Source: a virus. From it: a DNA stretch of 64,000 nucleotides. The notes below the pieces were generated by a model that was given only the letters and a program-made list of their open reading frames with translations, was not told the origin of the DNA and did no database searches. The first letter of the stretch is position 1. Each line of letters starts with the position of its first letter. Position numbers and translations under genes: made by a program. The DNA is taken from the IMG/VR virus record IMGVR_UViG_3300006147_000011, one strand, 5' to 3'. This document shows, piece by piece, positions 1,289-27,595 of the stretch.

Positions 1289-1309
1289 GACATATAACGG
1301 AGAAACACA

Positions 1310-2119
1310 ATGATTAAAATCGAAGACACGATTATTAAACAAGAAACATTTGGCGACGGAACGCTTAAATGCCCTATTCCACCAATTGCAGCGGCGCGTG
1401 GTTTTATCTATATTACGTGGTGCTACGACAATGACGCAGAGCTGTTTTGCCTGTGGAGTCTTGTAGGACACATTCGCCAGCAACACCCTACACTTCTCAT
1501 AAATCTTTGTATGCCGTATATTCCTCATGCACGGCAAGACAGAAACGTCAGCAATAGACTGTTTACCCTCAAATATTTTGCAGAACTCATAAATCTTATG
1601 AAGTTTAACAAAGTGTTTGTACTCGACCCCCACTCCGATGTTTCAATGGCACTCATTGATCGTGTGGAAGAAAGTGACTTACCGTTCAGGGTTTCGCCCA
1701 AAGATGAGCAAGCAACCATTATGTTTCCTGACAACGGAGCTGCAAAGAAGTACGCTCCTCGTTATCATCTTGAGCCGACAGACAACCCTTTCATTATCGG
1801 AAATAAACACCGCAACACGGATGGTCGTATTGAAAGCTATGAGTTGATGAACTTCGTAGAAGGGACAAAGAGCGTTATCATTCGTGACGACATTTGTAGC
1901 TACGGTGGAACATTCGTTGCGGCGGCGAAAGAATTAAGAAAACGCGGTGTCGAACATATTACCCTCGTTGTATCACATTGCGAGAATAACATTCTTAAGG
2001 GTGAGGTGTTCGATCATATAGATGCAGTGTTCACTACCGACAGTATTTGTACCGTATCACATCCAAAACTCAAAGTCACAAGGTGTTACAGGGAGGGCTT
2101 ACTAAATGTACAGAATTAA
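1310..2119 (+). CDS. ribose-phosphate pyrophosphokinase (Prs) homolog; candidate ADP-ribose pyrophosphokinase (Adps-like) of a NARP1-type pathway
   Basis: PYIPHARQDR (Prs PYxxYARQDRK), VFVLDPHSD (DLHA region), IIRDDICSYGGTF (PRPP-binding DDxIDTGGT-like). Confidence 0.7.
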   Translation: MIKIEDTIIKQETFGDGTLKCPIPPIAAARGFIYITWCYDNDAELFCLWSLVGHIRQQHPTLLINLCMPYIPHARQDRNVSNRLFTLKYFAELINLMKFNKVFVLDPHSDVSMALIDRVEESDLPFRVSPKDEQATIMFPDNGAAKKYAPRYHLEPTDNPFIIGNKHRNTDGRIESYELMNFVEGTKSVIIRDDICSYGGTFVAAAKELRKRGVEHITLVVSHCENNILKGEVFDHIDAVFTTDSICTVSHPKLKVTRCYREGLLNVQN

Positions 2120-3599
2120 CCCGCTTTTAGAAAGCGATTTTTATAAACAAGTTCATTGGAACCAATATCCAAAAGGCATCACGAAGGTCGTAAGCTATTT
2201 TGTGCCAAGAATGAGCAGATTAAAGAACGATAAACACCTTATAATGTTTGGGTTACAGTCTTTCATCAAAGAATATCTTATCGAAGACTTTAACGAGTTC
2301 TTCTTTTCCCGTCCTAAGGAAGACGTTGTACGCGAATACAAACATCTCCTCAACAACACACTCGGTGAAGGGTTGTACGGCATTGAGCGCATCGCAGAAC
2401 TACACGACTTGGGCTATCTGCCCATTGAGATTAAGGCACTCGCAGAAGGCACTCTCGTTCCAATCGGCGTTCCTATGTTCGAGATAAGCAACACTCACCC
2501 CGATTTTGCTTGGCTTACAAACGCGCTCGAATCTGTCATCAGTTGCGAAATGTGGCACGCCATGATTTCGGCAAATGTCGGGTACAAATATAGGAAAATT
2601 GTAGATCACTTCTATGATTTAAGTTGCGACGACAATATCCCTCGTAGAAAAGCTCTTGGAGATTTCTCAATGAGAGGACAAGAGTCAAAACGTAGTGCAT
2701 ATAAATCTTCCGCCGGTTGGCTGTTATCATTCGTGAACACTGCCACCGTTCCTGCGGTAGATTATATGGAAAGATATTATAACTGCGACTGTTCAAAAGA
2801 GGAAGTCGGCTTTGGTTCTGTGTCAACTGAGCACTCTGTAATGTGCAGCAATTTCGCGGTTGACGGTGACGAAATCACAATGATTAAGCGTCTGCTCACA
2901 GAAATCTATCCTAATACGTCTTTCAGTATGGTGAGCGACAGCTACGATTACTGGAACTTGGTAGACAACATCTTGCCAATGTGTAAGAAAGAAATCCTCG
3001 AGCATAACGGATGTCTCTTGGTGCGCGGCGACTCTGGCGACCCCGTTGAGGTCGTCACAAAGACCGTGTTCCACCTTTGGGAGCAGTTCGGTGGAACAGT
3101 CAACTCAAAGGGCTACAAGGTTCTAAACCCCCATATCAAGGCAATATACGGCGATAGCATTACGCCTCAAAGAGCAGAAGCAATTTACACGATATTGGTT
3201 GACAACGGATTTGCAGCAAGCAATGTTGCTCTCGGTGTTGGTAGCTTCTCTATGCAATGCCTTGAGTCTTACGAGGAACACGCTGCTATCCCGACGTTCA
3301 ACCCCTACACAAGAGATACGTTCGGAATTGCCATCAAGGCGACTTATGCTGAAGATAAAGACGGAAAGCCTATAATGATTTTCAAAAATCCCAAAGAGGC
3401 TTCGTTCAAAAAGTCTCACAAAGGCTGTGTGCTCGTTTTAACGGGGGCTGACGGCGCGTTAACAAGCGAAGACGAACACGACTTCAAAGAGACTTATCGT
3501 GCCGACAATGCCCTAAAGACGGTCTTTAACGACGGCAAGATGACGCTCGAATATAGTCTTGCCGATGTCCGCAGAAGGCTTTATGGAGATAAATTTTAA
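2106..3599 (+). CDS. nicotinamide phosphoribosyltransferase family protein (Nampt/NadV-like; candidate Namat)
   Basis: N-terminal SDFYKQVHWNQYPKGITKVVSYFVPR matches Nampt [25 protein letters not shown]; 497 aa, typical size. Confidence 0.8.
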   Translation: MYRINPLLESDFYKQVHWNQYPKGITKVVSYFVPRMSRLKNDKHLIMFGLQSFIKEYLIEDFNEFFFSRPKEDVVREYKHLLNNTLGEGLYGIERIAELHDLGYLPIEIKALAEGTLVPIGVPMFEISNTHPDFAWLTNALESVISCEMWHAMISANVGYKYRKIVDHFYDLSCDDNIPRRKALGDFSMRGQESKRSAYKSSAGWLLSFVNTATVPAVDYMERYYNCDCSKEEVGFGSVSTEHSVMCSNFAVDGDEITMIKRLLTEIYPNTSFSMVSDSYDYWNLVDNILPMCKKEILEHNGCLLVRGDSGDPVEVVTKTVFHLWEQFGGTVNSKGYKVLNPHIKAIYGDSITPQRAEAIYTILVDNGFAASNVALGVGSFSMQCLESYEEHAAIPTFNPYTRDTFGIAIKATYAEDKDGKPIMIFKNPKEASFKKSHKGCVLVLTGADGALTSEDEHDFKETYRADNALKTVFNDGKMTLEYSLADVRRRLYGDKF

Positions 3600-4075
3600 T
3601 GATCACATATAAAAACGGAGATTTGCTTAAAAGCAACTGCAATATCATCTGCCACCAAGTAAACTGTCAAGGAGTTATGGGTTCAGGCATCGCAAAACAG
3701 ATACGCGCCACTTACCCCCATATCTTTTCAAAATATAAACAGCTATGCGAGCAGAATAAACTGGAATACCTAATGGGAGTTGCTCAAATATGCGCAATTT
3801 CAGAGGCTAAGACCCACTACATTGCTAATATGTTCGCACAGCTTCATTACTTGCCGCGTGGCATTAACCATACGAACTATGAGATGTTTAGGCTATGCTG
3901 CCAACAACTTAAAACCCTTATTCCGATAGAGATTGCCGATACAGAATTTACTATTGGCTTCCCTTATGGCATCGGTTGCGGACTGGGTGGCGGCGACTGG
4001 AACATAGTGAGAAAAATCATCGAAGAAGAATTTGCCGACGATAAATGGAAGGTTGAAATATGGAAGCTAAACTAA
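3599..4075 (+). CDS. macro domain protein (ADP-ribose binding or processing)
   Basis: GDLLKSNCNIICHQVNCQGVMGSGIAKQI resembles the macro-domain GDIT..DAIVNAAN..GGGGVDGAIH core; 158 aa. Confidence 0.6.
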   Translation: MITYKNGDLLKSNCNIICHQVNCQGVMGSGIAKQIRATYPHIFSKYKQLCEQNKLEYLMGVAQICAISEAKTHYIANMFAQLHYLPRGINHTNYEMFRLCCQQLKTLIPIEIADTEFTIGFPYGIGCGLGGGDWNIVRKIIEEEFADDKWKVEIWKLN

Positions 4076-4815
4076 AAGAAATATTAGACTGGCTTGAACA
4101 GTACAAAGAAATTACAAGATGTCGCGGAGTTGTTCTTGGAATAAGTGGCGGCAAAGATAGCACCGTTGTAGCAATGCTTGCGAAGAAAGTTTGGGGGGAC
4201 AATGTGCTTGGCGTTCTTATGCCAAATCACAACCAATCCGACCTTGACGACTCTCTCAAAATTGTTGAAACCCTTGGGATAAACTTCAAGGTAGTTAATA
4301 TCGGAAAAGTTTATGACTCATTGCTCGAGGTTGTCGAAGACGAAGGTTCTGGCTCGGATTATTGTAACGGTAAGGTATTTAATATCTCAAGAAAATCACT
4401 TACCAATATCCCTCCTCGTATTCGTATGACAGTGCTGTACGCCATTGCCCAAACCCTTGGATACAGGGTTATTGGAACAGGCAATGCAAGCGAGGCTTAT
4501 ATCGGTTGGACAACCAAATGGGGCGACAGCGCATACGACTTCAACCCCATTGCCCATCTAACCTGTACCGAGGTTATTGCTCTCGGCGAACTGCTTGCTG
4601 AGGAGTTCGGATTAGATAAAAAGTATGTCGTTAAGACACCGTCCGATGGATTATGCGGCAAGAGTGACGAAGATAGTTTCGGCTTTACATACTCAACGCT
4701 TGACGGGTATATCACGGGTGGAACTTCAAACACGGATTACGAAACCGCTCTAAAAATAGAGCAAATGCACCAAGCGTCAGAGCACAAGAGAAATATGCCC
4801 GCTACGTTAGAGTAA
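4060..4815 (+). CDS. nadE: NH3-dependent NAD+ synthetase (NadE)
   Basis: PP-loop VVLGISGGKDSTVVA followed by the LGVLMP motif typical of NadE. Confidence 0.7.
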   Translation: MEAKLKEILDWLEQYKEITRCRGVVLGISGGKDSTVVAMLAKKVWGDNVLGVLMPNHNQSDLDDSLKIVETLGINFKVVNIGKVYDSLLEVVEDEGSGSDYCNGKVFNISRKSLTNIPPRIRMTVLYAIAQTLGYRVIGTGNASEAYIGWTTKWGDSAYDFNPIAHLTCTEVIALGELLAEEFGLDKKYVVKTPSDGLCGKSDEDSFGFTYSTLDGYITGGTSNTDYETALKIEQMHQASEHKRNMPATLE

Positions 4816-6650: not shown

Positions 6651-7016
6651 ATGAGCCTCGACAAAGCAATTCAACACGGTAAAGAAAAGAGAAAACCTTA
6701 CTATGGCGAGAAAGCATTTGATCCAGCGTGCCGCAATCACGGCGGTGACGATTGGAGTAAAAGCAATCGTACAATTCAGCGTCAGCGTGCCGAACAGCAA
6801 GCAAATTCAAAAATTCAAGAGGCTCAAACCGAACCCGTTTTAACCAACCGCGAATGGCTTGAAAGTCTCACCGATGAACAATTAGCGGAAATGTTAATTG
6901 GTTCATTCAAAATTTTCGTCGCGGTTGACAGAAGCATAGGAACGAAAGAAAATGACAGTCGTCAAGACAGCATTAAAAAACATATTCAATGGCTTCGTTC
7001 CAAACACAAAAAATAA
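6651..7016 (+). CDS. hypothetical protein (121 aa)
   Basis: ORF with RBS GGAGAA; no recognisable motif. Confidence 0.4.
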   Translation: MSLDKAIQHGKEKRKPYYGEKAFDPACRNHGGDDWSKSNRTIQRQRAEQQANSKIQEAQTEPVLTNREWLESLTDEQLAEMLIGSFKIFVAVDRSIGTKENDSRQDSIKKHIQWLRSKHKK

Positions 7017-7029
7017 TTTGGAGTGTATT

Positions 7030-8168
7030 ATGAGAAAACTTGCTCACATCGAACAAATTGCATGGCTCCGCCCCATCGAAGGAGCTGACAAAATCGAGCT
7101 CGCCGGCATACTCGGCTGGCAGTGTATCGTAAAAAAGAATGAATTTAAGGTTGGCGATCTTGCAATCTACGTTGAAATTGACAGCATTATGCCTTCCGAC
7201 AATCCTGACTTCGCGTTTCTTGAGTCTAAACATTATAAAATTAAGACAATGAAAATGCGCGGCGTCATATCTCAAGGCATCATCTTCCCCCTCTCTGTTC
7301 TCCATGACGAAAAAACACACGGCATCGGTGACGATGTTACCGACATCCTTAAGATTAAACAGGTCGAAGATGATGTTCCCAAGCAACAGGTCAAAGACCC
7401 CGCGGCGGCAATTAAGCAACGCCACAAAAAACTCTTCAAAAATAAAGTATTTTTATGGTTTATGAAGTTCAAGTGGTTTAGAAAAACCGTTTATAAACTT
7501 CTCGCACCGAAAAAGAAACCGAAAAACTTCCCCGACTGGATCGTTAAAACGGACGAAACACGTTTGCAAAATATGCCTTTCGTTCTCGATACATACAAGG
7601 ACAAGCCAATGGTCGTCACTGAAAAGCTGGACGGCACCTCTACGAGCTTTGGGTTGAGAAAAGAAAAGAAAAGAAAAGAAAATATGACTTCGCGGTGTGT
7701 TCACGGAACGTGCGCCAAGCCGACATCAACCAAAAGTGTTTCTACGACGACAATGTGTACCACCAAATCGCCAATAAGTACGACATCCGCAACGTGCTTA
7801 TGCAGATACTTGAAAAATATAAAGCAACTACTGTCGTTCTTCAGGGCGAAACCATTGGCGAGGCAATTCAAAAAAATAAATACGGTCTCAAGGGAATTGA
7901 TTTCTATGCCTTCAACCTTGTAATCGACGGGGTAAAAATGGACAGCGCAGTCGCAACAGATGTGATGCACGACTTTGGAATCAAGTGGGTTCCGATTATT
8001 AACGCGAACTTTAAGCTGCTCCCCACTGTCGATGAAATGATTGCTTATGCTGACGGAAAGTCCACATTGTGCGATACGCTTAGAGAAGGCGTTGTTATAC
8101 GAGACCACGACAACAAAATTAGCTTTAAGTGTATCAGCAATCAATTCTTACTTAAACACAATATATAA
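7030..8168 (+). CDS. Rnl2-family ATP-dependent RNA ligase, split by a frameshift inside a (GAAAA)5 repeat
   Basis: Adenylation motif KLDGTS (frame 1), then CSRN, LQGETIGEAIQKN (Rnl2 GIQKN motif) and REGVVIR in frame 3 (7695..8168); ATG 7030 with RBS GGAGTG. Confidence 0.6.
7658..7682 (+). repeat. pentanucleotide simple-sequence repeat (GAAAA)x5 at the ligase frameshift
   Basis: gaaaagaaaagaaaagaaaagaaaa read directly; gain or loss of one 5-nt unit shifts the frame by -1 or +1. Confidence 0.9.
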
Positions 8169-8181
8169 GGAGTCGTGAGAT

Positions 8182-8406
8182 GTGAACAGAGAGAGAAGAA
8201 AACGAATTAACAAAGTCATAGCTACAATCAATGGGTGTGCCGATGAGCTTGACGATATAAAGTTTGACGAAGACTACGCAAGAGAGAACACACCCGAAAA
8301 TTTGCAAGGGGGCGACGCTTATTGTACATCGGAAGACTGTAGTGATAAAATAGAAGATGCAATCTCTGACATTCGACAGGCGGCAAGTACCTTGGAAGAA
8401 ATTTAG
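8182..8406 (+). CDS. putative antitoxin partner of MazF-like toxin (basic N-terminus, acidic C-terminus)
   Basis: 74-aa ORF ending 15 nt before the MazF start; RERRKRINKV basic N-terminus, very acidic C-terminus. Confidence 0.3.
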   Translation: MNRERRKRINKVIATINGCADELDDIKFDEDYARENTPENLQGGDAYCTSEDCSDKIEDAISDIRQAASTLEEI

Positions 8407-8420
8407 AGGCGGTATCAATT

Positions 8421-8762
8421 ATGCACCGAGGCGAAATATATTTAGTCGATTTAAGTAATCAGGTAGGCTCGGAACAAACCGGTATTCGCCCCGCTTTGAT
8501 AGTACAGAATGAACAAGGGAACCAACATTCCCCTACTACTATCATTTGCCCTCTCACATCTCAAGATAAAACACCGATAGAAACTCACGTTACGCTGACG
8601 CCAAGCGATGCAGGAATACTTAAAGTTTCTACGGTGTTATGTGAGCAGGTCAGAGTTGTAGACAAAACGAGACTTAAGAAAAAGTTGGGCGAAGTTGTTA
8701 ATAGAAGTAAAATTGACGACATTAACAGAAAACTTATGATTTCTATCGGTATAGGAGTTTAA
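8421..8762 (+). CDS. mazF: MazF/PemK-family mRNA interferase toxin
   Basis: RGEIYLVDL ... GSEQTGIRPALIV ... ICPLTS, the classic MazF/PemK N-terminal signature. Confidence 0.7.
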   Translation: MHRGEIYLVDLSNQVGSEQTGIRPALIVQNEQGNQHSPTTIICPLTSQDKTPIETHVTLTPSDAGILKVSTVLCEQVRVVDKTRLKKKLGEVVNRSKIDDINRKLMISIGIGV

Positions 8763-8763
8763 T

Positions 8764-8961
8764 ATGAGCTACGAACCATTAACTAAAATAGTAATCGACG
8801 ATAACGGCAACCAGATGGCTGCTTGTCGGTTATATGGCACCAATGAGTGCCTCATACATAAGCCTAACGGTTGCACGAATTGCCCAATGCTTAAGGCAAT
8901 TTTTACCCAATTAAATACATTTGAAAAAATATATATGGAGGGAGATGACGATGCGAACTGA
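8764..8961 (+). CDS. small Cys-rich hypothetical protein
   Basis: 65-aa ORF with CRLYGTNEC ... CTNC. Confidence 0.3.
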   Translation: MSYEPLTKIVIDDNGNQMAACRLYGTNECLIHKPNGCTNCPMLKAIFTQLNTFEKIYMEGDDDAN

Positions 8962-9940
8962 TTGTAGCCGCGACTCAGTTGTATTAAACTTTCCCGTTCC
9001 AAGGGCATTTGAAACAGACGCAGAAAGAGCAGATCGCCTTGAACTGGAAAACAAACAGCTCGTTGAAGAGCTTGCGGTTGAACGTATCATGAGACGTGAT
9101 GCAGAAGATCGCGTAGATAAACTACAACGGCAAATTTGCGAGCTTGAAAATAAACCACGTCGTAAGCGTCGAACAAAAGCCGAAATGGAAGCCGCGGAAC
9201 CCATAGTATTCTCTGAATTTAAGTCCGACGGCAAAAGGAAACCACGTCCGGCAGACCCGATACGTTCATATGAAGACTTTGCGTCAATCCAAAATTATTT
9301 TTTGGAGCAAGGCAAAATACGTGATTGGGCGTTGTGGACAATCGGAGTAAGCCTTGGATTGCGTATCTCGGACTTACTATCGCTAAAGATAAGTTACTTG
9401 CTCAATGACGATAGAACATTTCGTCAAAGAATGTATATCGTCGAACAAAAAACTTTGAAGATAAATAATTGCCTGATAACCCAATCAGTCAAAGACGCGG
9501 CGACGAAGTTATTTGACTCAATAAATTGGGACTTCGAGTTAGACGATTACCTCTTCAAAAGTAATAAGACGAAGGGCAAAATGTTTGAGGAATATGGGTG
9601 GAAGATTTTGTCCGACGCCGGCAAAGCTTTGAACCTACCAATTATAATAGGCTCACACACAATGCGTAAAAGCTTCGCCAACATTGCTGCTTGTGTAGAT
9701 AAGTCAAGTATCGACATGAACGCAATCACGAAAATCCAAGGGCTTTTGAACCATAGCGACCAGCGCGTCACTATGAGATATCTGGGCACTTATCAACAGA
9801 TGTTTGACAAAGCCCGTGAGTCCGTGAGCGAGTTCGTTCTGGGAAAGACTGACATACACGAAATCGTAGCAGGCAATAACTATACAATCGATGATATAGT
9901 TTCAAAGATTGACCAACTCGAAAAAAAATTATCAAATTAG
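8921..9940 (+). CDS. tyrosine site-specific recombinase/integrase (339 aa) with coiled-coil N-terminus
   Basis: Catalytic boxes LGLRISDLLSL (Arg), HTMRKSFANI (HxxR), RVTMRYL (Tyr). Confidence 0.6.
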   Translation: MKKYIWREMTMRTDCSRDSVVLNFPVPRAFETDAERADRLELENKQLVEELAVERIMRRDAEDRVDKLQRQICELENKPRRKRRTKAEMEAAEPIVFSEFKSDGKRKPRPADPIRSYEDFASIQNYFLEQGKIRDWALWTIGVSLGLRISDLLSLKISYLLNDDRTFRQRMYIVEQKTLKINNCLITQSVKDAATKLFDSINWDFELDDYLFKSNKTKGKMFEEYGWKILSDAGKALNLPIIIGSHTMRKSFANIAACVDKSSIDMNAITKIQGLLNHSDQRVTMRYLGTYQQMFDKARESVSEFVLGKTDIHEIVAGNNYTIDDIVSKIDQLEKKLSN

Positions 9941-9953
9941 GAGAACATCAGAG

Positions 9954-10490
9954 ATGAAACTTTTCAGTACAAACAGAAACTCAAAGGGCAAGCAGCTTGT
10001 ATGCGACGATGCTGTATTTGACCCCAACCTTATTATGACGCTACACGCCGATGCGGATGAAAAAGTCGTAACATTCCAGTACGACTTCGAGGAATGTGGA
10101 CATCCACTCAACCTCCCTTTTGACGTTCAGTCAGTCAGCTTCCTTGTGAAGTTTACAAAGCACGATATACATATTTGCGCAATAGCCGAGGCGTCTGACG
10201 AAATGGACGAGCAGTATGACGAATTTATTGGCGGCATAGGCGATGAAATTGAGTTCGACGTAAGGATGAGCGTTGAAGAAAAATATGCACTCCTCCTCTC
10301 ACTTTTCAATCCTTTGCTGTCAATGGTTAAGACAAAAGAAAAGTCGCCCACACCCAATGTTGCGCCGAACAAAGCAGACGCAAAAACATTGAAAAAGGAA
10401 TATCCTTTCGATGACAACACATTCAAGGCGGCGATGGCAGAATTGTTTACAAATATCTTTAACGGAAGCAATTTAGAGAACAAAAAGTAA
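9954..10490 (+). CDS. hypothetical protein
   Basis: ORF; RBS AGGAGA upstream of ATG 9954 (track start 9909 also possible). Confidence 0.4.
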   Translation: MKLFSTNRNSKGKQLVCDDAVFDPNLIMTLHADADEKVVTFQYDFEECGHPLNLPFDVQSVSFLVKFTKHDIHICAIAEASDEMDEQYDEFIGGIGDEIEFDVRMSVEEKYALLLSLFNPLLSMVKTKEKSPTPNVAPNKADAKTLKKEYPFDDNTFKAAMAELFTNIFNGSNLENKK

Positions 10491-10548
10491 GCCTGACAAA
10501 CTTCCCCCATTTTTCCTATCTTATACATAAAATTTAACTTATACGGCA

Positions 10549-10577
10549 TTGACTTATGTCTAATAATGTTGTATAAT
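10549..10577 (+). promoter_or_regulatory. sigma-70/SigA-type promoter TTGACT-17nt-TGnTATAAT
   Basis: TTGACT 10549-10554, 17-nt spacer, TG 10570-10571, TATAAT 10572-10577; GGAGG RBS 10583-10587, ATG 10597. Confidence 0.55.
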
Positions 10578-10596
10578 AAAATGGAGGTATAAGACA

Positions 10597-11508
10597 ATGA
10601 TAAACCAACAAGAATTTGTGGAAAGGTATTACCCTTCCGCGAACGCTTCACGCAAAAGCGACGTTATTAGATTCCTTGACAATCTTAGCGAGTTGGTTGG
10701 TAACACGCCAATCGCCGAGGCATTGAAAAGCAAGCAACTATTATGCAACGCTTTTTATGTACAAAAAGCGGGTAACAGCATATCTCGTCCGCACTATCAA
10801 AAAATCAAAGAGTATTTGCTTAACGTTTTTGAGTATGTGGGCGTCAACTCCGAAGTGCCGAGCCGCGATGAAGTAATTGCTTCTCAGGAAAGCGTTTGCT
10901 ATTTTAGAGGCATCAACGAACTTCTGTCATTTATAGATGCTGTTGGCGATGAAGTATTGACAGGTTACAACCCCACACAAGACCTTGTAAGAGTTAAGGC
11001 GGTGTGTGTATTGGGCTGGCTTGGGTTTACACCCGAAGACATAGCAAACCTTACTGTTCGAGACCTCACCCCTATCGGACTTGATGGTTATAAGATTTCT
11101 GGTAGAGGAGGCTCATTTGAGATTTACGGACAGCCATTCGCGGCAATATACTACTTATCAGATTTAGAGTCTTATAAAGGTTTACCGTCGGGCAGAAAGG
11201 TAATCTTAAAGGGCAATGATGATTACCTGTTTAGACCGACCGATGCGAATTGTGAGAAACTCGACGGCGGGCAAATAATCCAAATAATTAAGCGGTTTAA
11301 TATGAGCGTCCCTCGCTCAATGAAGACATCGATTATCTTCCGTAATTTGCACAAGAATGCTTTATTCCTTGAAATCTATAACGATAAAAGTGAGCAAAGC
11401 CTTATCAATAAAATTACGTCAATAATGGGTTGTACACTAAACTATGCCTTTAACTACCGCGATCAATACGTAGAGTTTGTTAAGACACTTGAAAACAACG
11501 AAATATAA
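10597..11508 (+). CDS. hypothetical protein (303 aa), possibly degenerate integrase-like
   Basis: Strong promoter and RBS; region VLGWLGFTPEDIANLTVRDL vaguely resembles the recombinase box but lacks the Arg. Confidence 0.45.
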   Translation: MINQQEFVERYYPSANASRKSDVIRFLDNLSELVGNTPIAEALKSKQLLCNAFYVQKAGNSISRPHYQKIKEYLLNVFEYVGVNSEVPSRDEVIASQESVCYFRGINELLSFIDAVGDEVLTGYNPTQDLVRVKAVCVLGWLGFTPEDIANLTVRDLTPIGLDGYKISGRGGSFEIYGQPFAAIYYLSDLESYKGLPSGRKVILKGNDDYLFRPTDANCEKLDGGQIIQIIKRFNMSVPRSMKTSIIFRNLHKNALFLEIYNDKSEQSLINKITSIMGCTLNYAFNYRDQYVEFVKTLENNEI

Positions 11509-11532
11509 GATTACGGTCTTATATTTTTAACG

Positions 11533-11555
11533 ATTATAAAACATATTTAGACATA
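11533..11555 (+). promoter_or_regulatory. copy 1 of the recurrent ATTATAAAACATATTTAGACA motif (-10-like TATAAA plus conserved leader)
   Basis: Identical core to copies at 14088, 15407, 15473 and 17072; immediately upstream of RBS AGGAGA and ATG 11567. Confidence 0.45.
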
Positions 11556-11566
11556 TAGGAGATTAC

Positions 11567-11812
11567 ATGGCATCACTTGAAGAACTGAACGTAAACTTGG
11601 ACGACGTATCATTCGAGCCCATAACAAATGTCGTATTCATTATGAAAAACGGCGCACAGATCGGCGTTGGAACACCTCTTACGGTTTCCGCCTTTACAGA
11701 AATTTGGAACACACGCAAGAGAAAACTCAAAGTTATAACGGGCAAAGACAGCTATGCGTACATCAACAAAAGGCGCGTAGATTTCTACCACGTCTTCCCC
11801 GTAACAAAATAA
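11567..11812 (+). CDS. hypothetical protein (81 aa)
   Basis: ORF with RBS. Confidence 0.4.
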   Translation: MASLEELNVNLDDVSFEPITNVVFIMKNGAQIGVGTPLTVSAFTEIWNTRKRKLKVITGKDSYAYINKRRVDFYHVFPVTK

Positions 11813-11950
11813 AATAATTGCGCCGCCATATGCGGCGAGGATTAAACGGATTAAAAGGTCATTAAATATCGAGAGGTTAATAAGATGAAATTTGATGACG
11901 ACCGTTGCGCTACTCAGCCTATACATAATAAAATCAATATAGGAGACAAT

Positions 11951-12160
11951 ATGTTATTTACAGTAGCTGAAGTAGCGGCAATCTTAAAGACAAATGTGGA
12001 TTACGTCCACAAACTCAGAAAAGCGAAATTATTGCCATTCATCAAGCTCGGCTCCTTCAAGGTTAGGAAAGAGTCTTTGGAAATCTTCCTGCAAAAGTAT
12101 GAAGGAAAAGACTTAACAGAGCCTACCAATATTAAGGAGCTCGACGATGGCAAAAATTAA
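11951..12160 (+). CDS. xis: excisionase-family helix-turn-helix DNA-binding protein
   Basis: MLFTVAEVAAILKTNVDYVHKLRKAKLLPFIKLGSFKVRKESL (HTH_17/Xis-like); overlaps the integrase start; RBS AGGAGA before ATG 11951. Confidence 0.55.
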   Translation: MLFTVAEVAAILKTNVDYVHKLRKAKLLPFIKLGSFKVRKESLEIFLQKYEGKDLTEPTNIKELDDGKN

Positions 12161-13445
12161 CGTAAGAGACAGGAACAGAAACAAGCCCGACAAGAAACCA
12201 AACTGGGAATACCGATTTGAGGCAGCTCGGGTTGATGGCAAAAGAAAGCACATATCCAAGGCTGGGTTCAAAACAAAAAAAGAAGCCTTGGAAGCAGGTG
12301 CTTTGGCGATGTCGGAGTATAATACGGCAGGACTTCACTTTGAACCCTCCGAGATTGGTGTTAATGATTACCTTGATTATTGGTATGAACAGTATTGCGT
12401 TACAAACTTAAAATATAATACGCTCGTGACATATCAAAACCTTATCAAGAAACACATTAAACCACACATAGGAATGTACAAACTTAAAAGTTTGAACCCT
12501 TCCGTATTGCAAGACTATGCAAACGAATTAAGCAAGAAAGGATATTCCATTTCTTATGTTTTTGGGATACTTTCCACCTTAAAGGTTGCTCTTGATTACG
12601 CAGTATTTCCCTTGAAATATATTCGAGACAACCCTATCACTTATATCAAGTTCCCTACTAATGGCAAGCGAAAACGTGCAAGGCAAGTAATAAGTCGCGA
12701 AGAATTTGAAAAAATAATGCAACGGTTCCCTTTTGGAAACCGCTTCCACATCCCCCTTCTCTTTGGGTGGTACTGCGGATTGAGAATATCAGAGGCGTTC
12801 GCTGTTACGTGGGAAGACATTGACTTTGAAAATAAAACCTTGAACGTTGACAAACAGATCATTAAGCGCAACTATGGTTTGGAAGAAAAGACTTCATTGC
12901 GCTACCGCAGAAACAACGAGAAATCTGCTTGGTATTTTGCTCCTCCAAAATATGACTCGTGTAGAGTGATAAAGATTGGAGACCACCTTATAGATATTCT
13001 CCGCCAAGAAAAGCAACGCCAAGAAAGTAACGAGCAACTCTATAGAGAATATTACACCACCTATGTGGCAGTAAATGAGATTGACGAGAAAGGTAATGAG
13101 ATTACGAGAATTGTGCCGGTACAAAAATGTATTGAAACGGTTCAACCTCATATTAACTTCGTATGCGTTGAAGAGAATGGAATCTTCTCTACAACAGACA
13201 CGTTCAAGTATGCGACTCGCGTCATTCAGGGACTAATAGAAACACCTTTTGACTTCCACTCGCTTCGTCATTCGCACGCTACGCTCCTTATAGAGAACGG
13301 TGTAAGCCCGAAAGCAGTACAGCAGAGACTTGGTCATAGAAGCATCGTTACGACGCTCCAGACCTACGTTAAAGCCACAGAGCATATGCAACAAGAAGCC
13401 GCTGACGCCTTTGAAGAGATAATGGCAACACCGCCCGCGGCATAA
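12147..13445 (+). CDS. int: tyrosine integrase (Tn916/phage Int type) with N-terminal arm-binding domain
   Basis: N-terminus MAKINVRDRNRNKPDKKPNWEYRF (arm-DNA-binding fold); GLRISEAFAVTWEDID, HSLRHSHATLL (HxxR), TTLQTYV (Tyr). Confidence 0.8.
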   Translation: MAKINVRDRNRNKPDKKPNWEYRFEAARVDGKRKHISKAGFKTKKEALEAGALAMSEYNTAGLHFEPSEIGVNDYLDYWYEQYCVTNLKYNTLVTYQNLIKKHIKPHIGMYKLKSLNPSVLQDYANELSKKGYSISYVFGILSTLKVALDYAVFPLKYIRDNPITYIKFPTNGKRKRARQVISREEFEKIMQRFPFGNRFHIPLLFGWYCGLRISEAFAVTWEDIDFENKTLNVDKQIIKRNYGLEEKTSLRYRRNNEKSAWYFAPPKYDSCRVIKIGDHLIDILRQEKQRQESNEQLYREYYTTYVAVNEIDEKGNEITRIVPVQKCIETVQPHINFVCVEENGIFSTTDTFKYATRVIQGLIETPFDFHSLRHSHATLLIENGVSPKAVQQRLGHRSIVTTLQTYVKATEHMQQEAADAFEEIMATPPAA

Positions 13446-15373: not shown

Positions 15374-15420
15374 TTGACAATTTCCTTTACATATGGTATT
15401 ATAAAACATATTTAGACACA
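15374..15420 (+). promoter_or_regulatory. sigma-A-type promoter (TTGACA-17-TATTAT) fused to the conserved AAAACATATTTAGACACA leader motif
   Basis: TTGACA 15374-15379, TATTAT 15397-15402, motif 15403-15420. Confidence 0.5.
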
Positions 15421-15462
15421 TAATAGGATAAGTGCCGCCATTTGTGCGGTAATAAATATAAA

Positions 15463-15486
15463 TATTATACGACATATTTAGACACA
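15463..15486 (+). promoter_or_regulatory. second tandem copy TATTATACGACATATTTAGACACA about 65 nt downstream
   Basis: Read directly; followed by RBS GGAGAG and a 28-codon hydrophobic mini-ORF (15499..15585). Confidence 0.4.
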
Positions 15487-15627: not shown

Positions 15628-15876
15628 ATGGACAAAAAGTTAACCTGTCCCTTTTGCGGCAGAGAAGTAAGAATTGTAGTCTGTGATGACGAAGGCAATA
15701 TCCATCCAGACGAATACGAAGACGATCCGTGGAGCGGCTTAGGCTATATGTTAGTTCACGAGGAAGCCGACGGTGTTCACTGTCCTATCGCAACAGAACC
15801 AGATGAACCATTAGGTCGTTTAATTTATGACTCACGCGAAGAAGCTATCAAAGTTTGGAGTACACGAAATGGCTAA
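15628..15876 (+). CDS. Lar-family restriction-alleviation-like zinc-ribbon protein
   Basis: N-terminal CPFCG, second Cys pair (VHCP), C-terminal EEAIKVWSTRNG matching the Lar eeAi.aWNrR ending. Confidence 0.5.
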   Translation: MDKKLTCPFCGREVRIVVCDDEGNIHPDEYEDDPWSGLGYMLVHEEADGVHCPIATEPDEPLGRLIYDSREEAIKVWSTRNG

Positions 15877-16828
15877 TACGTTGGTAGTTAATCTATTTGG
15901 CGTTCCTGGCGCAGGCAAAAGCACGGGAGCCGCATACATATTCTCCTGCATTAAAATGGCAGGCATCAATGCAGAACTTATAACCGAATATGCAAAAGAT
16001 AAAGTTTGGGAACGAAACGATGAAGCGTTCCGCAACCAAGCCTACATATTTGGAGAGCAATCTTATAGGATAAGCCGCTGCGCCGGTAAGGTTGATGTTA
16101 TCGTTACCGACAGCCCGCTTCCTTTAAGTGTAATGTACAACAACGACGAACGACTTACAGAAAACTTTAACAAAGCCGTAATGGATGTGTTCAACACATA
16201 CGACAACCTTAACTACCTCTTGCTGAGAGTTAAGCCGTACAATCCCGTTGGGCGTAAGCAGACTGAAGCTGAGTCAGACGCACTTGGTGCATCGGTTATC
16301 TCGCTCCTCAAAGACAGAAACATCCCCTACCGCTCCATTGAAGGCGATGTGAAAGGATATGACGAGATTGTTCGAGAAATTCTTTTAAGGATAAACGGAG
16401 AACAAATTATGAATGACATCACAGAGTTCAGAGGAAACAATTACTACCTAAGCAACTTCTACGAAAGAGACGTTACCTGTTTCGGTCTTACATTTAAGAA
16501 TAATGAAGCGGCGTTCCACGCAATGAAGTGTCCCGAAAGAGCAAGCGAGTTTTGCGACCTCGACCCGTCGGCGGCAAAGAAACTTGGGCGACACGTCCAA
16601 CTTCGTTCCGACTGGGAGCAAGTCAAAGAAGACATCATGCTCGAGGTTTGCCGCGCTAAGTTTATGCAACATCCTGACCTAAAAGAAAAACTACTCTCCA
16701 CTGGTTCCGTACAACTCATCGAGGGTAACGATTGGAACGACAGAGAATGGGGTGTATGCAACGGTGAGGGCAAAAACAAGCTCGGAAAAATTCTTATGCG
16801 AATCAGAGAGGAACTTTCAAATGCGTAG
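15869..16828 (+). CDS. fusion of N-terminal P-loop kinase domain and C-terminal NADAR (YbiA-like) domain
   Basis: Walker A GVPGAGKST; C-terminal YYLSNFY ... NNEAAFHAMK ... EGNDWNDREWG, the NADAR/DUF1768 signature; ATG 15869 overlaps the Lar stop. Confidence 0.6.
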   Translation: MANTLVVNLFGVPGAGKSTGAAYIFSCIKMAGINAELITEYAKDKVWERNDEAFRNQAYIFGEQSYRISRCAGKVDVIVTDSPLPLSVMYNNDERLTENFNKAVMDVFNTYDNLNYLLLRVKPYNPVGRKQTEAESDALGASVISLLKDRNIPYRSIEGDVKGYDEIVREILLRINGEQIMNDITEFRGNNYYLSNFYERDVTCFGLTFKNNEAAFHAMKCPERASEFCDLDPSAAKKLGRHVQLRSDWEQVKEDIMLEVCRAKFMQHPDLKEKLLSTGSVQLIEGNDWNDREWGVCNGEGKNKLGKILMRIREELSNA

Positions 16829-17054
16829 CACAAAGAAGATTACTGCGAGAGACGCCGGATGGGACGCTCGCCTTGATAGCGTTACCCCATCGCTGAAAAG
16901 AACAGCAAGACGACAGCTTAACCATAAATTGCGGCAACAGCAAAAACTTGAGCTTCGTAATATGTCGGAAATATGCGTTTGTTGCGGAGCTCCTCTTGGC
17001 GACGCCGAACTTGGAAAGATGATCTGTAGCGAATGTAGTAAATCTGACACATAA
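16821..17054 (+). CDS. small basic protein with C-terminal CxxC...CxxC zinc ribbon
   Basis: CVCCGAPLGDAELGKMICSECS; RBS GGAGG before ATG 16821. Confidence 0.4.
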   Translation: MRSTKKITARDAGWDARLDSVTPSLKRTARRQLNHKLRQQQKLELRNMSEICVCCGAPLGDAELGKMICSECSKSDT

Positions 17055-17063
17055 TTTTTTATC

Positions 17064-17086
17064 ATTATAAAACATATTTAGACACA
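17064..17086 (+). promoter_or_regulatory. copy of the ATTATAAAACATATTTAGACACA motif upstream of the HD-domain gene
   Basis: Exact match to copies at 11533 and 15399. Confidence 0.45.
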
Positions 17087-26098: not shown

Positions 26099-26349
26099 TG
26101 AAATCATTTCGCCTAAGCATTACAAGAGATGGCAAGTTGTCAATAGCTTGTCCAGAGTGTGGCTCTACCAAGGTGGAAGTTACCAACTACCCCGCTAACG
26201 AGGTTGACAAGATAAAGTGTCGCCACTGCGGTCACACGCTGTATAGACCATTCCCACAACCTAAAGGTTACCACCAATTTACGATAGACGAACTTGATAA
26301 GAATGACGAAGAGGAAAATAATGAAATTCGAGAACACACAAGTATTTAA
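26098..26349 (+). CDS. zinc-ribbon protein (83 aa)
   Basis: CPECGS ... CRHCGH. Confidence 0.4.
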   Translation: MKSFRLSITRDGKLSIACPECGSTKVEVTNYPANEVDKIKCRHCGHTLYRPFPQPKGYHQFTIDELDKNDEEENNEIREHTSI

Positions 26350-27034
26350 TTTTGAGGGCGCGTTGCGTGGTATGCGCAACCCCAAAAATAGCTGGAATAA
26401 GAGCGACAGTTGGCGGGACTATGATTGCGATAACGGCGACATTTATATGATTGGAGCGAATGATATGAAGCTCGCCACCACGCTCATCAAGGCTGGTAGC
26501 GAACACCGTAAATTTTTACGGCAAATCTTTGTGTCTGTGGATATTACCGCTCCCCTTTATTGGTGGAAAGAATTCGACACATATAAAGTCGGGACTGTTG
26601 CAAACTCAACCTCAACAATGCACAAACTGGCGTCCACTCCTATCACCATCGATTGCTTTGAAACTGACGATTATCACAGCATTGTCTTTGACACAGAAGA
26701 GCAAAACCCTCTCGCGCAAAAGATAAACGTTTTCAACGCTATTGAAAATGATCTCATTCCGTTCCTTGAAACGTTGAGGGTTGTGTACAACAAAACTCAG
26801 AACAAGCAAATTTGGAAGGAACTCATCCGCTGGCTTCCAGAGAGTTGGCTACAAACACGAACAGTAACGTTAAATTACGAAAACCTCTTGACTATTTGTA
26901 GGCATAGACGACATCACAAATTGAACGAGTGGTCTGGAGCCGACAAAATAGACCTTCCGAACTTTATATCGTGGGCACGTTCGCTCCCATATGCAAAAGA
27001 ATTCATCTTCTACGACGAAGAAACACAACAATAA
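26321..27034 (+). CDS. divergent ThyX-fold protein; canonical RHR motif replaced
   Basis: LIKAGSEH...ITAPLYWWKEF aligns with ThyX LMKHGHE...VKAPIFVARQWF, but where ThyX has RHRIASY this protein has DTYKVGT; C-terminal RHRRHHKLNEWS aligns with the ThyX R.D.HAQ.E region. Confidence 0.4.
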   Translation: MKFENTQVFNFEGALRGMRNPKNSWNKSDSWRDYDCDNGDIYMIGANDMKLATTLIKAGSEHRKFLRQIFVSVDITAPLYWWKEFDTYKVGTVANSTSTMHKLASTPITIDCFETDDYHSIVFDTEEQNPLAQKINVFNAIENDLIPFLETLRVVYNKTQNKQIWKELIRWLPESWLQTRTVTLNYENLLTICRHRRHHKLNEWSGADKIDLPNFISWARSLPYAKEFIFYDEETQQ

Positions 27035-27046
27035 GGAGAATACATA

Positions 27047-27595
27047 GTGCGCAATTTTATTTGTATATCTGGTAAAGCACAAAACGGTAAAGATACATCG
27101 GCGGAAATTTTTAAGAACGAACTCGTTATACGCGGACATTCTGTTCTGGTTATCCACCAAGCAGACTTACTCAAATATATATGCAAGTCATTCTTTAATT
27201 GGAACGGCGAAAAGGATGATGCGGGCAGAACACTTTTGCAACAGGTCGGCACAAACGTCATTCGCAAGGTTGAACCTGATTTTTGGGTTGATTTTATAGC
27301 GAAAGTCACGAGCTTCTTCAAAGACACATGGGACTATATCATTATTCCAGATACACGGTTTCCAAATGAACTCGAAAAACTCAAAGCTGATGACGCCAAC
27401 GTTTTTCACGTCCGCGTCATACGAAAAGACTTCGTTAGCCCATTAACAGAAGAACAACAACGACATCCTTCGGAGACGGCGCTGGATGGCGTTGAGAGCG
27501 ACTTTACGCTTGTCAACGATAAAGCAATCGAAGACTTATACAGCGGCGTTGTAGACATCCTTGACGCCATTGAGAAAAGAGTTAAGGAGAACTAA
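27047..27595 (+). CDS. deoxynucleoside monophosphate kinase (T4 gp1-like P-loop kinase)
   Basis: ICISGKAQNGKDT matches the T4 dNMP kinase LSGVKRSGKDT; GTG start with AGGAGA RBS. Confidence 0.55.
   Translation: MRNFICISGKAQNGKDTSAEIFKNELVIRGHSVLVIHQADLLKYICKSFFNWNGEKDDAGRTLLQQVGTNVIRKVEPDFWVDFIAKVTSFFKDTWDYIIIPDTRFPNELEKLKADDANVFHVRVIRKDFVSPLTEEQQRHPSETALDGVESDFTLVNDKAIEDLYSGVVDILDAIEKRVKEN

Follow-up and report, generated by a model that had tools for sequence, protein, structure and literature searches.

A NadR-like kinase and a YbiA-like NADAR domain joined in one gene of a temperate Christensenella phage

Introduction

Phages can use NADAR enzymes to remove the ADP-ribosylation made by DarT1, as recent work has shown. 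A gene that joins a NADAR domain to a P-loop kinase, carried by a temperate Christensenella(-ceae) phage whose prophage host is the gut bacterium Christensenella, raises the question of whether the two enzymes act together as one machine or are separate tools held on one polypeptide. Known NADAR fusions (plant RibD/RibA-COG3236; viral NADAR-Macro/SLOG/DUF4326) provide a precedent for the joining of enzymes of related pathways; the architectures described for them (PMC11543638, PMC9503650) do not include one with a P-loop kinase. The window, that is, the whole stretch of 64,000 nucleotides analyzed here (IMG/VR record IMGVR_UViG_3300006147_000011), also holds the macro domain and the NAD+ reconstitution-type cluster that a preliminary description of this DNA had reported. 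The phage NAD+ reconstitution genes are PncA-like, Prs/Adps-like, NAMPT/Namat-like and NadE.

518-4815: NAD+ gene cluster
3599-4075: macro domain

Results

The kinase-NADAR gene

The gene is the second of a three-gene cassette:

15374-15485, plus strand: sigma-70-like promoter (TTGACA-17-TATTAT) together with a repeated leader, ACATATTTAGACAC, present twice, ahead of the cassette
15628-15876, plus strand: Cys-rich, Lar-like ORF of 82 amino acids (PHROG 599), whose stop overlaps the kinase start
15869-16828, plus strand: complete kinase-NADAR ORF, 319 amino acids plus a TAG stop
16821-17054, plus strand: ORF of 77 amino acids with a C-terminal 4-Cys zinc ribbon, whose ATG overlaps the kinase-NADAR stop (ATGCGTAG)

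The start ATG at 15869 shares nucleotides with the stop of the preceding ORF (ATGGCTAA) and has a GGAG 8 nt on its 5′ side. An in-frame ATG at 15827, which would give a longer ORF, was ruled out as the start because the homologues begin at the equivalent of 15869, sharing that position (MANTL/MDKTL). The Lar-like ORF is a conserved upstream neighbour in four relatives (L001, L002, L094 and L095), and a further copy of the leader (ACATATTTAGACAC) is placed at 17072-17085, before the HD gene.

The preliminary description had read the locus as one gene encoding a P-loop kinase followed by NADAR, and had named two separate genes, through a stop or frameshift, as one outcome that would disprove it. 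The ORF is uninterrupted in at least six independent assemblies (P0001, L001, L002, L011, L012 and L096), and that reading stands. In P0001, which comprises 193 member sequences, the ORF is 97% identical, and in L096, a Christensenella MAG, 96% identical. Each half displays a dN/dS of 0.02-0.07 at dS 0.6-1.5; hence selection is strongly purifying on the kinase half and on the NADAR half alike. The existence of relatives with truncated or deleted variants might raise the suspicion of a chimeric assembly, or of neutral read-through of recent date in which one half is dead, but the intact ORFs, the low dN/dS in both halves, the preservation of every catalytic motif and the retention of fusions down to 49% identity make this reading hardly credible, and an assembly artefact is ruled out by the independent assemblies together with the dN/dS values.

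The fusion is thus real and conserved, and it is also rare. A nucleotide-level search of GenBank phages with the locus gave no match, and of the 688 GenBank phage records matched at the protein level, not one covers at least 80% of the kinase-NADAR protein; the genes around the matches in Clostridium phage FA67 and Caulobacter phage CcrBL9 were uninformative. PADLOC detected no known defence system, its sole match being to a candidate model of NADAR type (PDC-M42C, E 2.8e-10).

The NADAR domain

The C-terminal half contains the following elements, located by alignment, with the roles of the residues in the second to fourth lines taken from PMC11543638:

16409-16825, plus strand: NADAR domain of the YbiA-like clade, residues 181-319
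16505-16528, plus strand: catalytic Glu213 (16505-16507) and phosphate-binding Lys220 (16526-16528)
16577-16615, plus strand: K237-K-L-G-R241 ... D-W249-E, pyrophosphate and adenine contacts
16721-16750, plus strand: E285-G-N-D-W-N-D291-R-E-W294, with E285 as the YbiA-subfamily Glu

Residues 190-316 match Pfam NADAR PF08719 (E 2.4e-26, 93.4 bits against a cut-off of 35.1) over profile positions 9-162 of 163, which bears out the domain assignment of the preliminary description, whose motifs YYLSNFY, AFHAMK and EGNDWNDREWG were found at residues 192-198, 215-220 and 285-295 within a complete active site. Sequence searches of the PDB returned E. coli YbiA (2b3w, E 2.3e-17) and 8bau (E 1.3e-6), and the same structures were the top Foldseek matches (TMt 0.73 and 0.62, respectively) of an AF2 model with pLDDT above 90 across the domain and a YbiA-like alpha+beta fold.

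Glu213 and Lys220 correspond to E43/K50 of the P. nicotianae NADAR and to E88/K95 of DarG1 from E. coli C7, and neither varies across 11 fusions and 70 NADARs. The segment from K237 to W249 is equivalent to K75, G78, R79 and W89 of 8bau, whereas E285 corresponds to its E125, and D291 and W294 to its D130 and W133. E213, K220, K237, R241, W249, E285, D291 and W294 are all invariant, and the NADAR half keeps the full set of ADP-ribose-binding and catalytic residues.

The site of E125 distinguishes the NADAR types, being Glu in the YbiA subfamily, Asp in the DarG1/BC4488 type and His in the T4 AdfN type (PMC11543638). With its Glu285 and a bare core devoid of DNA-binding extension, the domain is YbiA-like, E. 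coli YbiA (2B3W) being its closest PDB match both by sequence and by fold, and the NADARs of Bacillus phages SPbetaL3, phi18-2, AR9 and PBS1 are 56-59% identical to it; unlike all of these, the NADAR described here is joined to a kinase. It has in common with the DarG1 and phage AdfN NADARs the superfamily, the Glu/Lys catalytic pair and the ADP-ribose contacts, but T4-type AdfN has His at the Glu285 site, and DarG1 has Asp (D171), an N-terminal beta-beta-alpha DNA-binding extension and an adjoining DarT1, all of which are absent here: the N-terminal extension is the kinase, and the immediate neighbours are the Lar-like and zinc-ribbon ORFs.

Guanine-ADPr is an in-vitro substrate of tested NADARs belonging to several clades (PMC11543638, PMC11125620, PMC11825919). 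E. coli YbiA and T4 NADAR hydrolyse it as well, although they gave no DarT1 protection in uninfected cells (PMC11125620). Against the riboflavin-intermediate N-glycosidase model TIGR02464 of NCBIfam, the score of the domain lies at the threshold (73.9 bits against a cut-off of 73.7). The documented role of YbiA is that of an N-glycosidase acting on riboflavin intermediates; no riboflavin context for the NADAR was found in the window.

Among 27 dereplicated NADAR groups the neighbours included NadE in 6 (adjacent in 4), NAMPT-like genes in 6 and Macro in 5, and the order NadE-NADAR-kinase occurs in two divergent lineages (L054/L064 and L118). NADARs of the YbiA-like clade are thus most often located inside phage NAD+ reconstitution clusters.

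The kinase domain

15869-16408, plus strand: N-terminal P-loop kinase domain of NadR/Ttd14 AAA_28 type, residues 1-180
15899-15925, plus strand: Walker A / P-loop, G11-VPGAGKS-T19, residues 11-19, unchanged across 11 fusions and 55 stand-alone kinases
15986-16012, plus strand: acceptor-site motif after strand 2, E40-Y-A-K43-D44-K45-V-W47-E48, made up of invariant columns
16091-16117, plus strand: Walker B-like strand, V75-D-V-I-V-T80-D81-S-P83, from the alignment with relatives and NadR
16226-16261, plus strand: LID-like segment, R120-V-K122-P-Y-N-P-V-G128-R129-K-Q131, aligned with NadR NNTPWVADGLRS

The Walker A sequence GVPGAGKST was found at residues 11-19, as the preliminary description had it. 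Residues 7-161 match Pfam AAA_28 PF13521 (E 2.4e-7, 31.5 bits against a cut-off of 27) over profile positions 2-161 of 164, the domain alone scoring 33.8 bits. All 55 kinase relatives match AAA_28 (best E 3.4e-12), and for all of them it is the sole full-length Pfam match. The closest structural match is the ribosylnicotinamide-kinase (RNK) domain of NadR, ahead of other P-loop kinases, and the alignment of both is collinear, including EY[KR]D and the [DT]TD/TDS Walker B, despite a sequence identity of about 16-22%. The E40-E48 motif, which aligns with NadR EYGRDYVF, probably binds the phosphate acceptor. The basic residues K45, R120 and K122 of the kinase family stand where NadR has Y, N and T.

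The family has been named otherwise. The kinase-NADAR protein matches PHROG 1017 (E 8.6e-44) and PHROG 2107 (E 2.9e-10), the latter labelled 'thymidylate kinase'. In thymidylate kinases the Walker B strand is followed by DR[YFH], and deoxynucleoside kinases have an ERS motif. In the P-loop kinase studied here the Walker B Asp is not followed by Arg, and NadR reads IDTDF at the same place. A thymidylate kinase (PF02223) was rejected, as the site of the motif reads T80-D81-S82-P83 and the Pfam Thymidylate_kin profile was matched by 2 of the 55 family members, at E 0.03 or worse; the PHROG 2107 label is an annotation name only. The features of a deoxynucleoside kinase of dNK/dCK/TK2 type ([DE]-R-S motif, Arg-rich lid, profile) were not found, nor were the profile or structural similarity of a polynucleotide 5′-kinase of T4 Pnk / AAA_33 type. 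Other searches were of little use: the PDB search with the kinase profile gave spurious designed PPR repeat proteins, with dGK only at E 0.013, the NCBIfam search only P-loop-level matches, and the BFVD fold search only the generic names 'AAA domain', 'dTMP kinase' and 'NadR/Ttd14'.

Differences from the NadR ribosylnicotinamide kinases (E. coli 8X7F; L. lactis 6GYE; Bas30_86 of NARP3) were found as well. The kinase-NADAR protein lacks the NMNAT domain that accompanies a functional RNK and, among the window ORFs scanned with Pfam, the PnuC partner present in NARP3; moreover, the kinase has extra basic residues by the acceptor site and a family context that is mostly of dNTP metabolism.

Genomic contexts of the kinase family

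The relatives of kinase and NADAR, pooled, give 684 matches at E 1e-30 or better, and the size of the kinase family is, as an order of magnitude, hundreds of 50%-identity clusters. In 92 dereplicated kinase groups the neighbours were NrdD (20), dUTPase (18, directly adjacent in 7), NT5C (18) and NrdG (16). Direct adjacency to NADAR was found in 2 groups and to macro in 1. At about 90% of the loci the kinase stands alone, as do most NADARs. The usual home of the kinase is therefore a dNTP-synthesis operon and not a set of ADP-ribose genes. Its fusion partners, in raw counts that ignore phylogeny and how often the genes merely neighbour each other, are guanylate kinase (three times, in both orders), dUTPase (three times), MazG, RNase H, NADAR and, in one group, a TARG1/DarG-like macro domain (PDB 4j5r, E 1.9e-25).

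The preliminary description had offered a polynucleotide kinase as one option. In such a scheme a 5′-OH kinase would work in RNA repair with the RNA ligase and the HD phosphohydrolase, and NADAR would process the ADP-ribose products of 2′-phosphate removal.

6952-7923: RNA ligase; the window also holds PTH2 and an HD protein

In L074 the gene immediately preceding the kinase encodes an RNA ligase, Thg1-like genes are near the kinase in 9 of the 92 groups, and a link between NADAR and RNA repair has been proposed (PMC9503650). Nevertheless, the kinase falls short of AAA_33, the Pnk family (best E 0.021), AAA_28 being its full-length match and NadR its best structure; a separate AAA_33+HD Pnk-like protein occurs alongside the kinase in 10 of the 92 groups; and Tpt1/KptA is absent among the window ORFs scanned. 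We reject polynucleotide kinase as the identity of the domain and consider participation in RNA repair very improbable.

The similarity to NadR raises another reading, in which a stand-alone RNK makes NMN or NaMN from nicotinamide or nicotinic-acid riboside while NADAR frees ADP-ribose from conjugates, both feeding the NAD+ reconstitution genes as an accessory arm of NARP type. It agrees with AAA_28 as the sole full-length match across the family, with the Walker B Asp lacking the Arg of thymidylate and deoxynucleoside kinases, with the NAD+ reconstitution cluster of the window and with the positions of the kinase inside or at the end of NAD+ clusters in L054/L064, L118, L086, L061 and L157; the RNK-NMNAT enzyme of NARP3 is a phage precedent (PMC13464706). 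Yet NAD+ genes are near the kinase in only 6-7 of the 92 groups, as against about 20 near NrdD or dUTPase, and the guanylate kinase, dUTPase, MazG and RNase H fusions do not fit nicotinamide riboside salvage. In addition, K45, R120 and K122 would fit an acceptor of negative charge better than nicotinamide riboside, a cation, neither NMNAT nor PnuC was found among the approximately 30 window ORFs scanned with Pfam, and the identity to NadR is low. A role in NAD+ salvage is therefore possible, though unlikely.

Separability of the two domains

Close relatives have lost either half. In L003 and L004 a clean deletion removed kinase codons 1-148 with NADAR retained, in L094 and L095 (P0003, 59 contig blocks) NADAR is truncated and the kinase retained, and in L091 both are separate genes in reversed order. 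Because of these losses, the kinase and NADAR domains are separable. Regarding their arrangement in the protein, the AF2 full model gave a pTM of 0.57 although its pLDDT was 91.5, with low confidence at linker residues 178-181; no fixed interface between the domains is predicted.

These observations bear on the idea that kinase and hydrolase act sequentially on one ADP-ribosylated nucleic-acid or nucleotide substrate, where for example NADAR or macro would remove the ADP-ribose carried by a modified guanine (or thymine) nucleoside or nucleotide, which the kinase would then return to the pool by phosphorylating it again. The kinase has been fused to NADAR and also to a TARG1/DarG-like macro domain, which mirrors the two DarT antitoxin types and brings in the folds that undo guanine- and thymine-linked ADP-ribosylation, about five sequence-divergent kinase-NADAR groups exist, kinase and NADAR are adjacent in both orders, and the guanylate kinase fusions suggest guanine nucleotides. 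Against it, close relatives can dispense with either half, in more than 90% of the kinases neither NADAR nor a macro domain is adjacent, the fusion partners track the commonest neighbours, as if packed phage genes fused opportunistically, and no fixed interface is predicted. Furthermore, we know of no defence that ADP-ribosylates the nucleotide pool in these hosts, which also counts against sequential action. We regard this reading as doubtful, and distinctly unlikely to be correct.

Discussion

The kinase and NADAR halves look like separate tools rather than one new machine. We tentatively favour, at somewhat less than even chances, a two-domain early protein whose modules work independently within one task, by which the nucleotide, NAD+ and ADP-ribose economy of the phage would be kept intact early in infection. 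We infer the substrates of both domains and the absence of coupling between them, in the case of the kinase from genomic context and remote structural similarity (16% identity to NadR).

In the model, residues 1-180 would form a small-molecule kinase of NadR/Ttd14 type. ATP would be bound at Lys17/Ser18 of the Walker A motif, and the loop with E40, K43, D44 and K45 and the lid with R120, K122 and R129 would hold the acceptor to be phosphorylated, a molecule resembling a nucleoside or nucleotide. Because its neighbours and partners are NrdD/NrdG, dUTPase, NT5C, guanylate kinase and MazG, the kinase would feed or repair the (deoxy)nucleotide pool, in addition to the DNMK of the phage itself:

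27047-27595: the phage's own DNMK

Residues 181-319 would be, by analogy, a YbiA-clade N-ribosyl hydrolase cleaving ADP-ribose or phosphoribosyl from an exocyclic amino group, guanine-N2-ADP-ribose on ssDNA being the best-known substrate of NADAR type. The reaction would free base and ADP-ribose, and the latter could be recycled by the Prs-like and NAMPT-like genes.

Three observations argue against this model: (i) the nearest characterised relative of the kinase phosphorylates nicotinamide riboside and not a nucleotide; (ii) the kinase is joined to two unrelated ADP-ribose hydrolase folds and ends NAD+ clusters in several lineages, hinting at a functional tie closer than co-expression alone, and (iii) YbiA and T4 NADAR failed to protect against DarT1 in vivo (PMC11125620). 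That kinase and ADP-ribose hydrolase are coupled in a new phage pathway, either rescuing ADP-ribosylated nucleosides and nucleotides or recycling nicotinamide riboside and ADP-ribose to NAD+, nonetheless seems to us improbable; if true, the pathway would serve against a host defence in which the nucleotide pool or the replicating DNA is ADP-ribosylated. Of the second ADP-ribose-centred counter-defence activity put forward in the preliminary description, the part concerning the NADAR half is reasonable, while the coupling of kinase and hydrolase is speculative.

The locus and its relatives tie the YbiA-clade phage NADARs to phage NAD+ reconstitution clusters and also to a NadR-like kinase family that is abundant in gut phages and wrongly labelled 'thymidylate kinase'. 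A kinase acting on nicotinamide riboside, or on the products of de-ADP-ribosylation, would extend phage NAD+/ADP-ribose counter-defence by one step; with a plain nucleotide kinase, the gene would be an ordinary fusion within an operon. In both cases, the fusion protein and its natural single-domain derivatives constitute a compact experimental handle on both enzymes.

Regarding its origin, the fusion would have arisen by the joining of two genes of one operon, leaving a relic at the junction.

16397-16411, plus strand: domain junction, with a Shine-Dalgarno-like GGAG (16397-16400), 8 nt, and the ATG of Met181 (16409-16411)

This arrangement looks like the relic start of a formerly separate NADAR gene, and in L003 a GTG at the equivalent of Met181 starts a NADAR-only ORF. 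Four NADARs without kinase (P0121-P0124) are 84-87% identical to the NADAR half, but they were rejected as proof of independent fusion, P0123 being a fusion derivative by deletion and P0121 and P0122 lying on contigs of about 1 kb. The argument for independent fusion would thus rest mainly on the similarity of the kinase half to the stand-alone L091 kinase, to which it is 81% identical, as against at most 68% to the other fusion groups; alternatively, one old fusion may have been followed by fission. Once formed, the fusion would be kept by selection, though not obligatory. The zinc-ribbon peptide encoded downstream also occurs in fused form, joined to a kinase in P0021 and to a NADAR in P0130.

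A single gene for a kinase and a NADAR domain

The motifs quoted in the preliminary description are found in one 319-amino acid reading frame, at residues 11-19 (GVPGAGKST), 192-198 (YYLSNFY), 215-220 (AFHAMK) and 285-295 (EGNDWNDREWG). Pfam assigns NADAR (PF08719) to residues 190-316 (E 2.4e-26) and AAA_28 (PF13521, NadR/Ttd14 type) to residues 7-161, above the gathering score (E 2.4e-7) and covering nearly the entire profile. The two domains belong to one gene, as had been claimed: the uninterrupted ORF recurs, 96-97% identical, in metagenome assemblies obtained independently and in a MAG of Christensenella, and in comparison with four relatives dN/dS is 0.02-0.07 in both halves (dS 0.6-1.5). 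The fusion is genuine and selection acts on both halves; that the ORF is an artefact is exceedingly improbable.

15869..16828, + strand: kinase-NADAR ORF
16821-17054: 77-amino acid ORF with a 4-Cys zinc ribbon at its C-terminal end (MSEICVCCGAPLGDAELGKMICSECS)

The ATG of the kinase-NADAR gene overlaps the stop codon of an upstream 82-amino acid Lar-like ORF, and its own stop codon is overlapped by the ATG of the zinc-ribbon ORF (ATGCGTAG). Since successive stop and start codons overlap, the three genes are considered translationally coupled. In relatives the zinc-ribbon ORF comes after the kinase and/or NADAR and, because the ribbon is fused to the C-terminus of the kinase in protein P0021 and of NADAR in protein P0130, could belong to the module as its third member.

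Separability of the two domains

In the syntenic prophage L091, which carries the closest stand-alone kinase (81% identical), NADAR is a separate 137-amino acid protein encoded two small genes upstream of the kinase, the opposite order to the fusion. Loci L003 and L004, syntenic with the window, have lost about 449 bp by a clean deletion, which removes kinase codons 1-148 and joins the kinase remnant to the upstream Lar-like ORF; their NADAR-only ORF begins at the junction Shine-Dalgarno (SD) sequence with a GTG. Conversely, L094 and L095 (protein P0003, 59 contig blocks) keep the kinase and lose NADAR after about residue 230, homology jumping, past a breakpoint at window position 16557, to the integrase module (window 8990-12290).

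L003 7901-7908 and L004 514-521: deletion site, equivalent to window 15864-16312
Window 8328-13445 and L094/L095 10723-13998: module of a PemK toxin and two tyrosine integrases

In the window and L003 this module precedes PTH2, and in L094/L095, where both contigs end within it, it lies directly 3' of the shortened kinase-NADAR gene; either the module is mobile or it marks a hotspot of rearrangement. The window junction retains GGAG, 8 nt and the ATG of Met181; in a full-length AlphaFold model the domains are confident, the linker is of low confidence and pTM is 0.57. These variants, the junction and the model argue that kinase and NADAR fold and function independently.

The NADAR half

Among solved structures, E. 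coli YbiA is the best match to the NADAR half (E 2.3e-17), followed by the Phytophthora NADAR 8BAU, and Foldseek gives the same result. Residues whose roles in 8BAU and DarG1 have been described (PMC11543638) were transferred through sequence alignment: E43, K50, K75, R79, W89, E125, D130 and W133 of 8BAU correspond to E213, K220, K237, R241, W249, E285, D291 and W294. All eight are invariant in 11 fusion proteins; across 70 NADARs of this clade the core ones are likewise invariant. E285 places the protein in the YbiA subfamily, the position being Asp in the DarG1 type and His in the T4 AdfN type; the TIGR02464 match is right at the threshold score. This half is predicted to be a competent enzyme for N-(ADP-)ribosyl hydrolysis. 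Tested NADARs from several clades hydrolyse guanine-N2-ADP-ribose in vitro, yet neither YbiA nor T4 NADAR rescues DarT1 toxicity in uninfected cells (PMC11125620, PMC11825919); hence the chemistry is well predicted, the physiological substrate is not.

NADAR and the NAD+ gene clusters

The macro domain and NAD+ cluster ascribed to this phage are indeed present at 518-4815 (PncA-like isochorismatase, Prs/Adps-like, NAMPT/Namat-like, Macro, NadE). The set resembles the NARP1 pair with genes for nicotinamidase and NAD synthetase added, a combination suggestive of a deamidated (nicotinic-acid) variant; a literature search found no report combining NARP1 with nicotinamidase and NadE. The set recurs in several unrelated gut phages, NADAR often lying inside the cluster.

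L054 2984-9539: NAD+ gene set
L086 777-6043 and 11080-11853: NAD+ gene set
L118 1242-4747: NAD+ gene set
L157 13014-18377: NAD+ gene set

Among 27 groups drawn from 80 IMG/VR loci with NADAR, the genes most often found nearby are NadE (6, adjacent in 4), NAMPT-like (6), Macro (5, adjacent in 3) and Thg1 (5), then NrdD and RNA ligase with 4 each and the kinase with 3. The order ...NAMPT-like...NadE-NADAR-kinase, with overlapping stop and start codons, is found in L054/L064 and independently in the Acutalibacteraceae prophage L118; in L086, L061 and L157 the kinase is within or adjoins the same cluster.

The kinase half

The kinase half is remote in sequence from all solved kinases, the best real match being mycoplasma dGK/dAK (E 0.013). 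AAA_28 is the sole full-length match in all 55 close relatives, other families covering the P-loop only, and the alignment with NadR is collinear, pairing TEYAKDKV with its WEYGRDYV following strand 2, KVDVIVTDS with KVAFIDTDF (Walker B) and KPYNPVGRK with TPWVADGLR (lid). On these grounds the polynucleotide kinase entertained in the preliminary description is rejected in favour of a small-molecule kinase of the NadR ribosylnicotinamide kinase (RNK) fold. Thymidylate kinases carry an Arg after the Walker B Asp (DR[YFH]) and deoxynucleoside kinases one in the ERS motif at Walker B; the window kinase has neither, and NadR likewise lacks the Arg after the Asp. The family differs from NadR in the invariant basic residues K45, R120 and K122, at positions where NadR has Y, N and T, which would favour an acceptor with negative charge over nicotinamide riboside, a cation. 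A dedicated NR/NaR kinase is unlikely. One family member is interrupted in the P-loop by an intein.

L032 8918-10483: Hint and homing-endonuclease-like insert of about 340 amino acids, directly after GAGK

The neighbours within 10 kb were surveyed at 159 pooled loci, dereplicated at 90% kinase identity into 92 groups. NrdD is present in 20, NT5C in 18, dUTPase in 18 (directly adjoining in 7) and NrdG in 16; a Pnk-like AAA_33+HD protein occurs in 10, a Thg1-like protein in 9, NADAR and a TARG1-like macro domain in 8 each, and NAD+ cluster genes in 6-7. Most of these associations point to the synthesis of deoxynucleotides and to nucleotide house-cleaning, and a minority to NAD+ clusters and ADP-ribose hydrolases. 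The ADP-ribose-centred theme initially proposed is supported for the NADAR half, whose clade travels with phage NAD+ reconstitution genes. Because members across all contexts are 55-80% identical, a single substrate probably serves them all. The window phage already encodes a DNMK-type dNMP kinase, in a DNMK-NT5C-NrdD-...-dUTPase block, so the AAA_28 kinase would be an additional activity.

27047-27595: DNMK-type dNMP kinase gene (GTG start, missed by an ATG-only ORF scan; PF21448, 68 bits)
26303-27034: 243-amino acid ORF with an RHRRHH stretch (PHROG 6721, unknown function)

The 243-amino acid ORF, without a match in a Pfam search, lies between a PAPS-reductase-like gene and DNMK, and co-occurs with kinase loci in 10 of the 92 groups. 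A role of the fusion in RNA repair, also raised initially, is highly improbable. An RNA-repair-like set is found near the kinase in related phages, comprising an AAA_33 kinase with an HD protein, an RNA ligase bearing a PHA02142 OB domain and a Thg1-like enzyme for the repair of tRNA 5' ends.

L051 12454-13344, L090 10542-11396 and L074 8537-9970: RNA-repair-like set

Distribution and fusion partners

None of the 688 GenBank phage records with a match covers at least 80% of the protein. A collection of 5.8 billion proteins contains about ten kinase-NADAR clusters in five sequence groups (49-97% identity), and a 50%-identity representative library has one clear full-length fusion among the best 150 matches, with 684 matches at E <=1e-30 and 20,057 at E <=1e-3. 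Stand-alone kinases of 175-185 amino acids, 55-80% identical, abound in gut viromes and Clostridia prophages. The architecture is not among the NADAR fusions described in PMC9503650, PMC11543638, PMC11125620 and PMC11825919; it is rare yet recurrent, each domain family being already known. The kinase family, uncharacterised and currently mis-annotated, is the more valuable lead.

The kinase is also fused to guanylate kinase (three representatives, both domain orders), RNase H, MazG, DUF551 and, at three loci including two isolate genomes, dUTPase; proteins P0255, P0357 and P0325 carry guanylate kinase, P0073 MazG and P0260 RNase H.

L137 9905-11002: kinase-dUTPase fusion
L138 9998-11002: kinase-dUTPase fusion, Dysosmobacter segnis
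L139 9977-11023: kinase-dUTPase fusion, Hominicoprocola fusiformis
L042 9998-11002, also L056 and L107: kinase fused to a TARG1/OARD1-like macro domain (PDB 4J5R, E 1.9e-25)

The kinase-macro protein parallels the kinase-NADAR fusion, with the alternative de-ADP-ribosylase fold in place of NADAR. Of the findings that speak for a coupled pathway, in which de-ADP-ribosylation would be followed by re-phosphorylation, these parallel fusions are the most intriguing; however, the choice of fusion partners tracks neighbour frequencies and fusion comes easily to tightly packed phage genes, and such a pathway is quite improbable. We tentatively favour a model in which kinase and NADAR would act independently of each other in the nucleotide/NAD+ economy of the phage early in infection.

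Promoter, leader element and host

A strong promoter of sigma-70-like type precedes the three-gene cassette, as does a repeated leader motif.

11541, 14086, 15406, 15472 and 17072, + strand: the five copies of the 14-mer ACATATTTAGACAC

By chance 0.7 copies are expected, and at least five were obtained in 0 of 100 shuffles. Every copy directly follows a ATTATAAA -10-like box; in four cases an RBS-like GGAG/GGAA and a start codon come directly after the copy. The 14-mer, also present upstream of the L091 NADAR gene, probably serves as a promoter or leader element of the phage.

MAG contigs and a 96% identical fusion make Christensenella, or another member of the Christensenellaceae, the probable host; the loci considered are L096 (CAJTOY010000001.1), which carries that fusion, L094/L095 and L091. 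Related prophages are integrated next to the bacterial pta-ackA genes.
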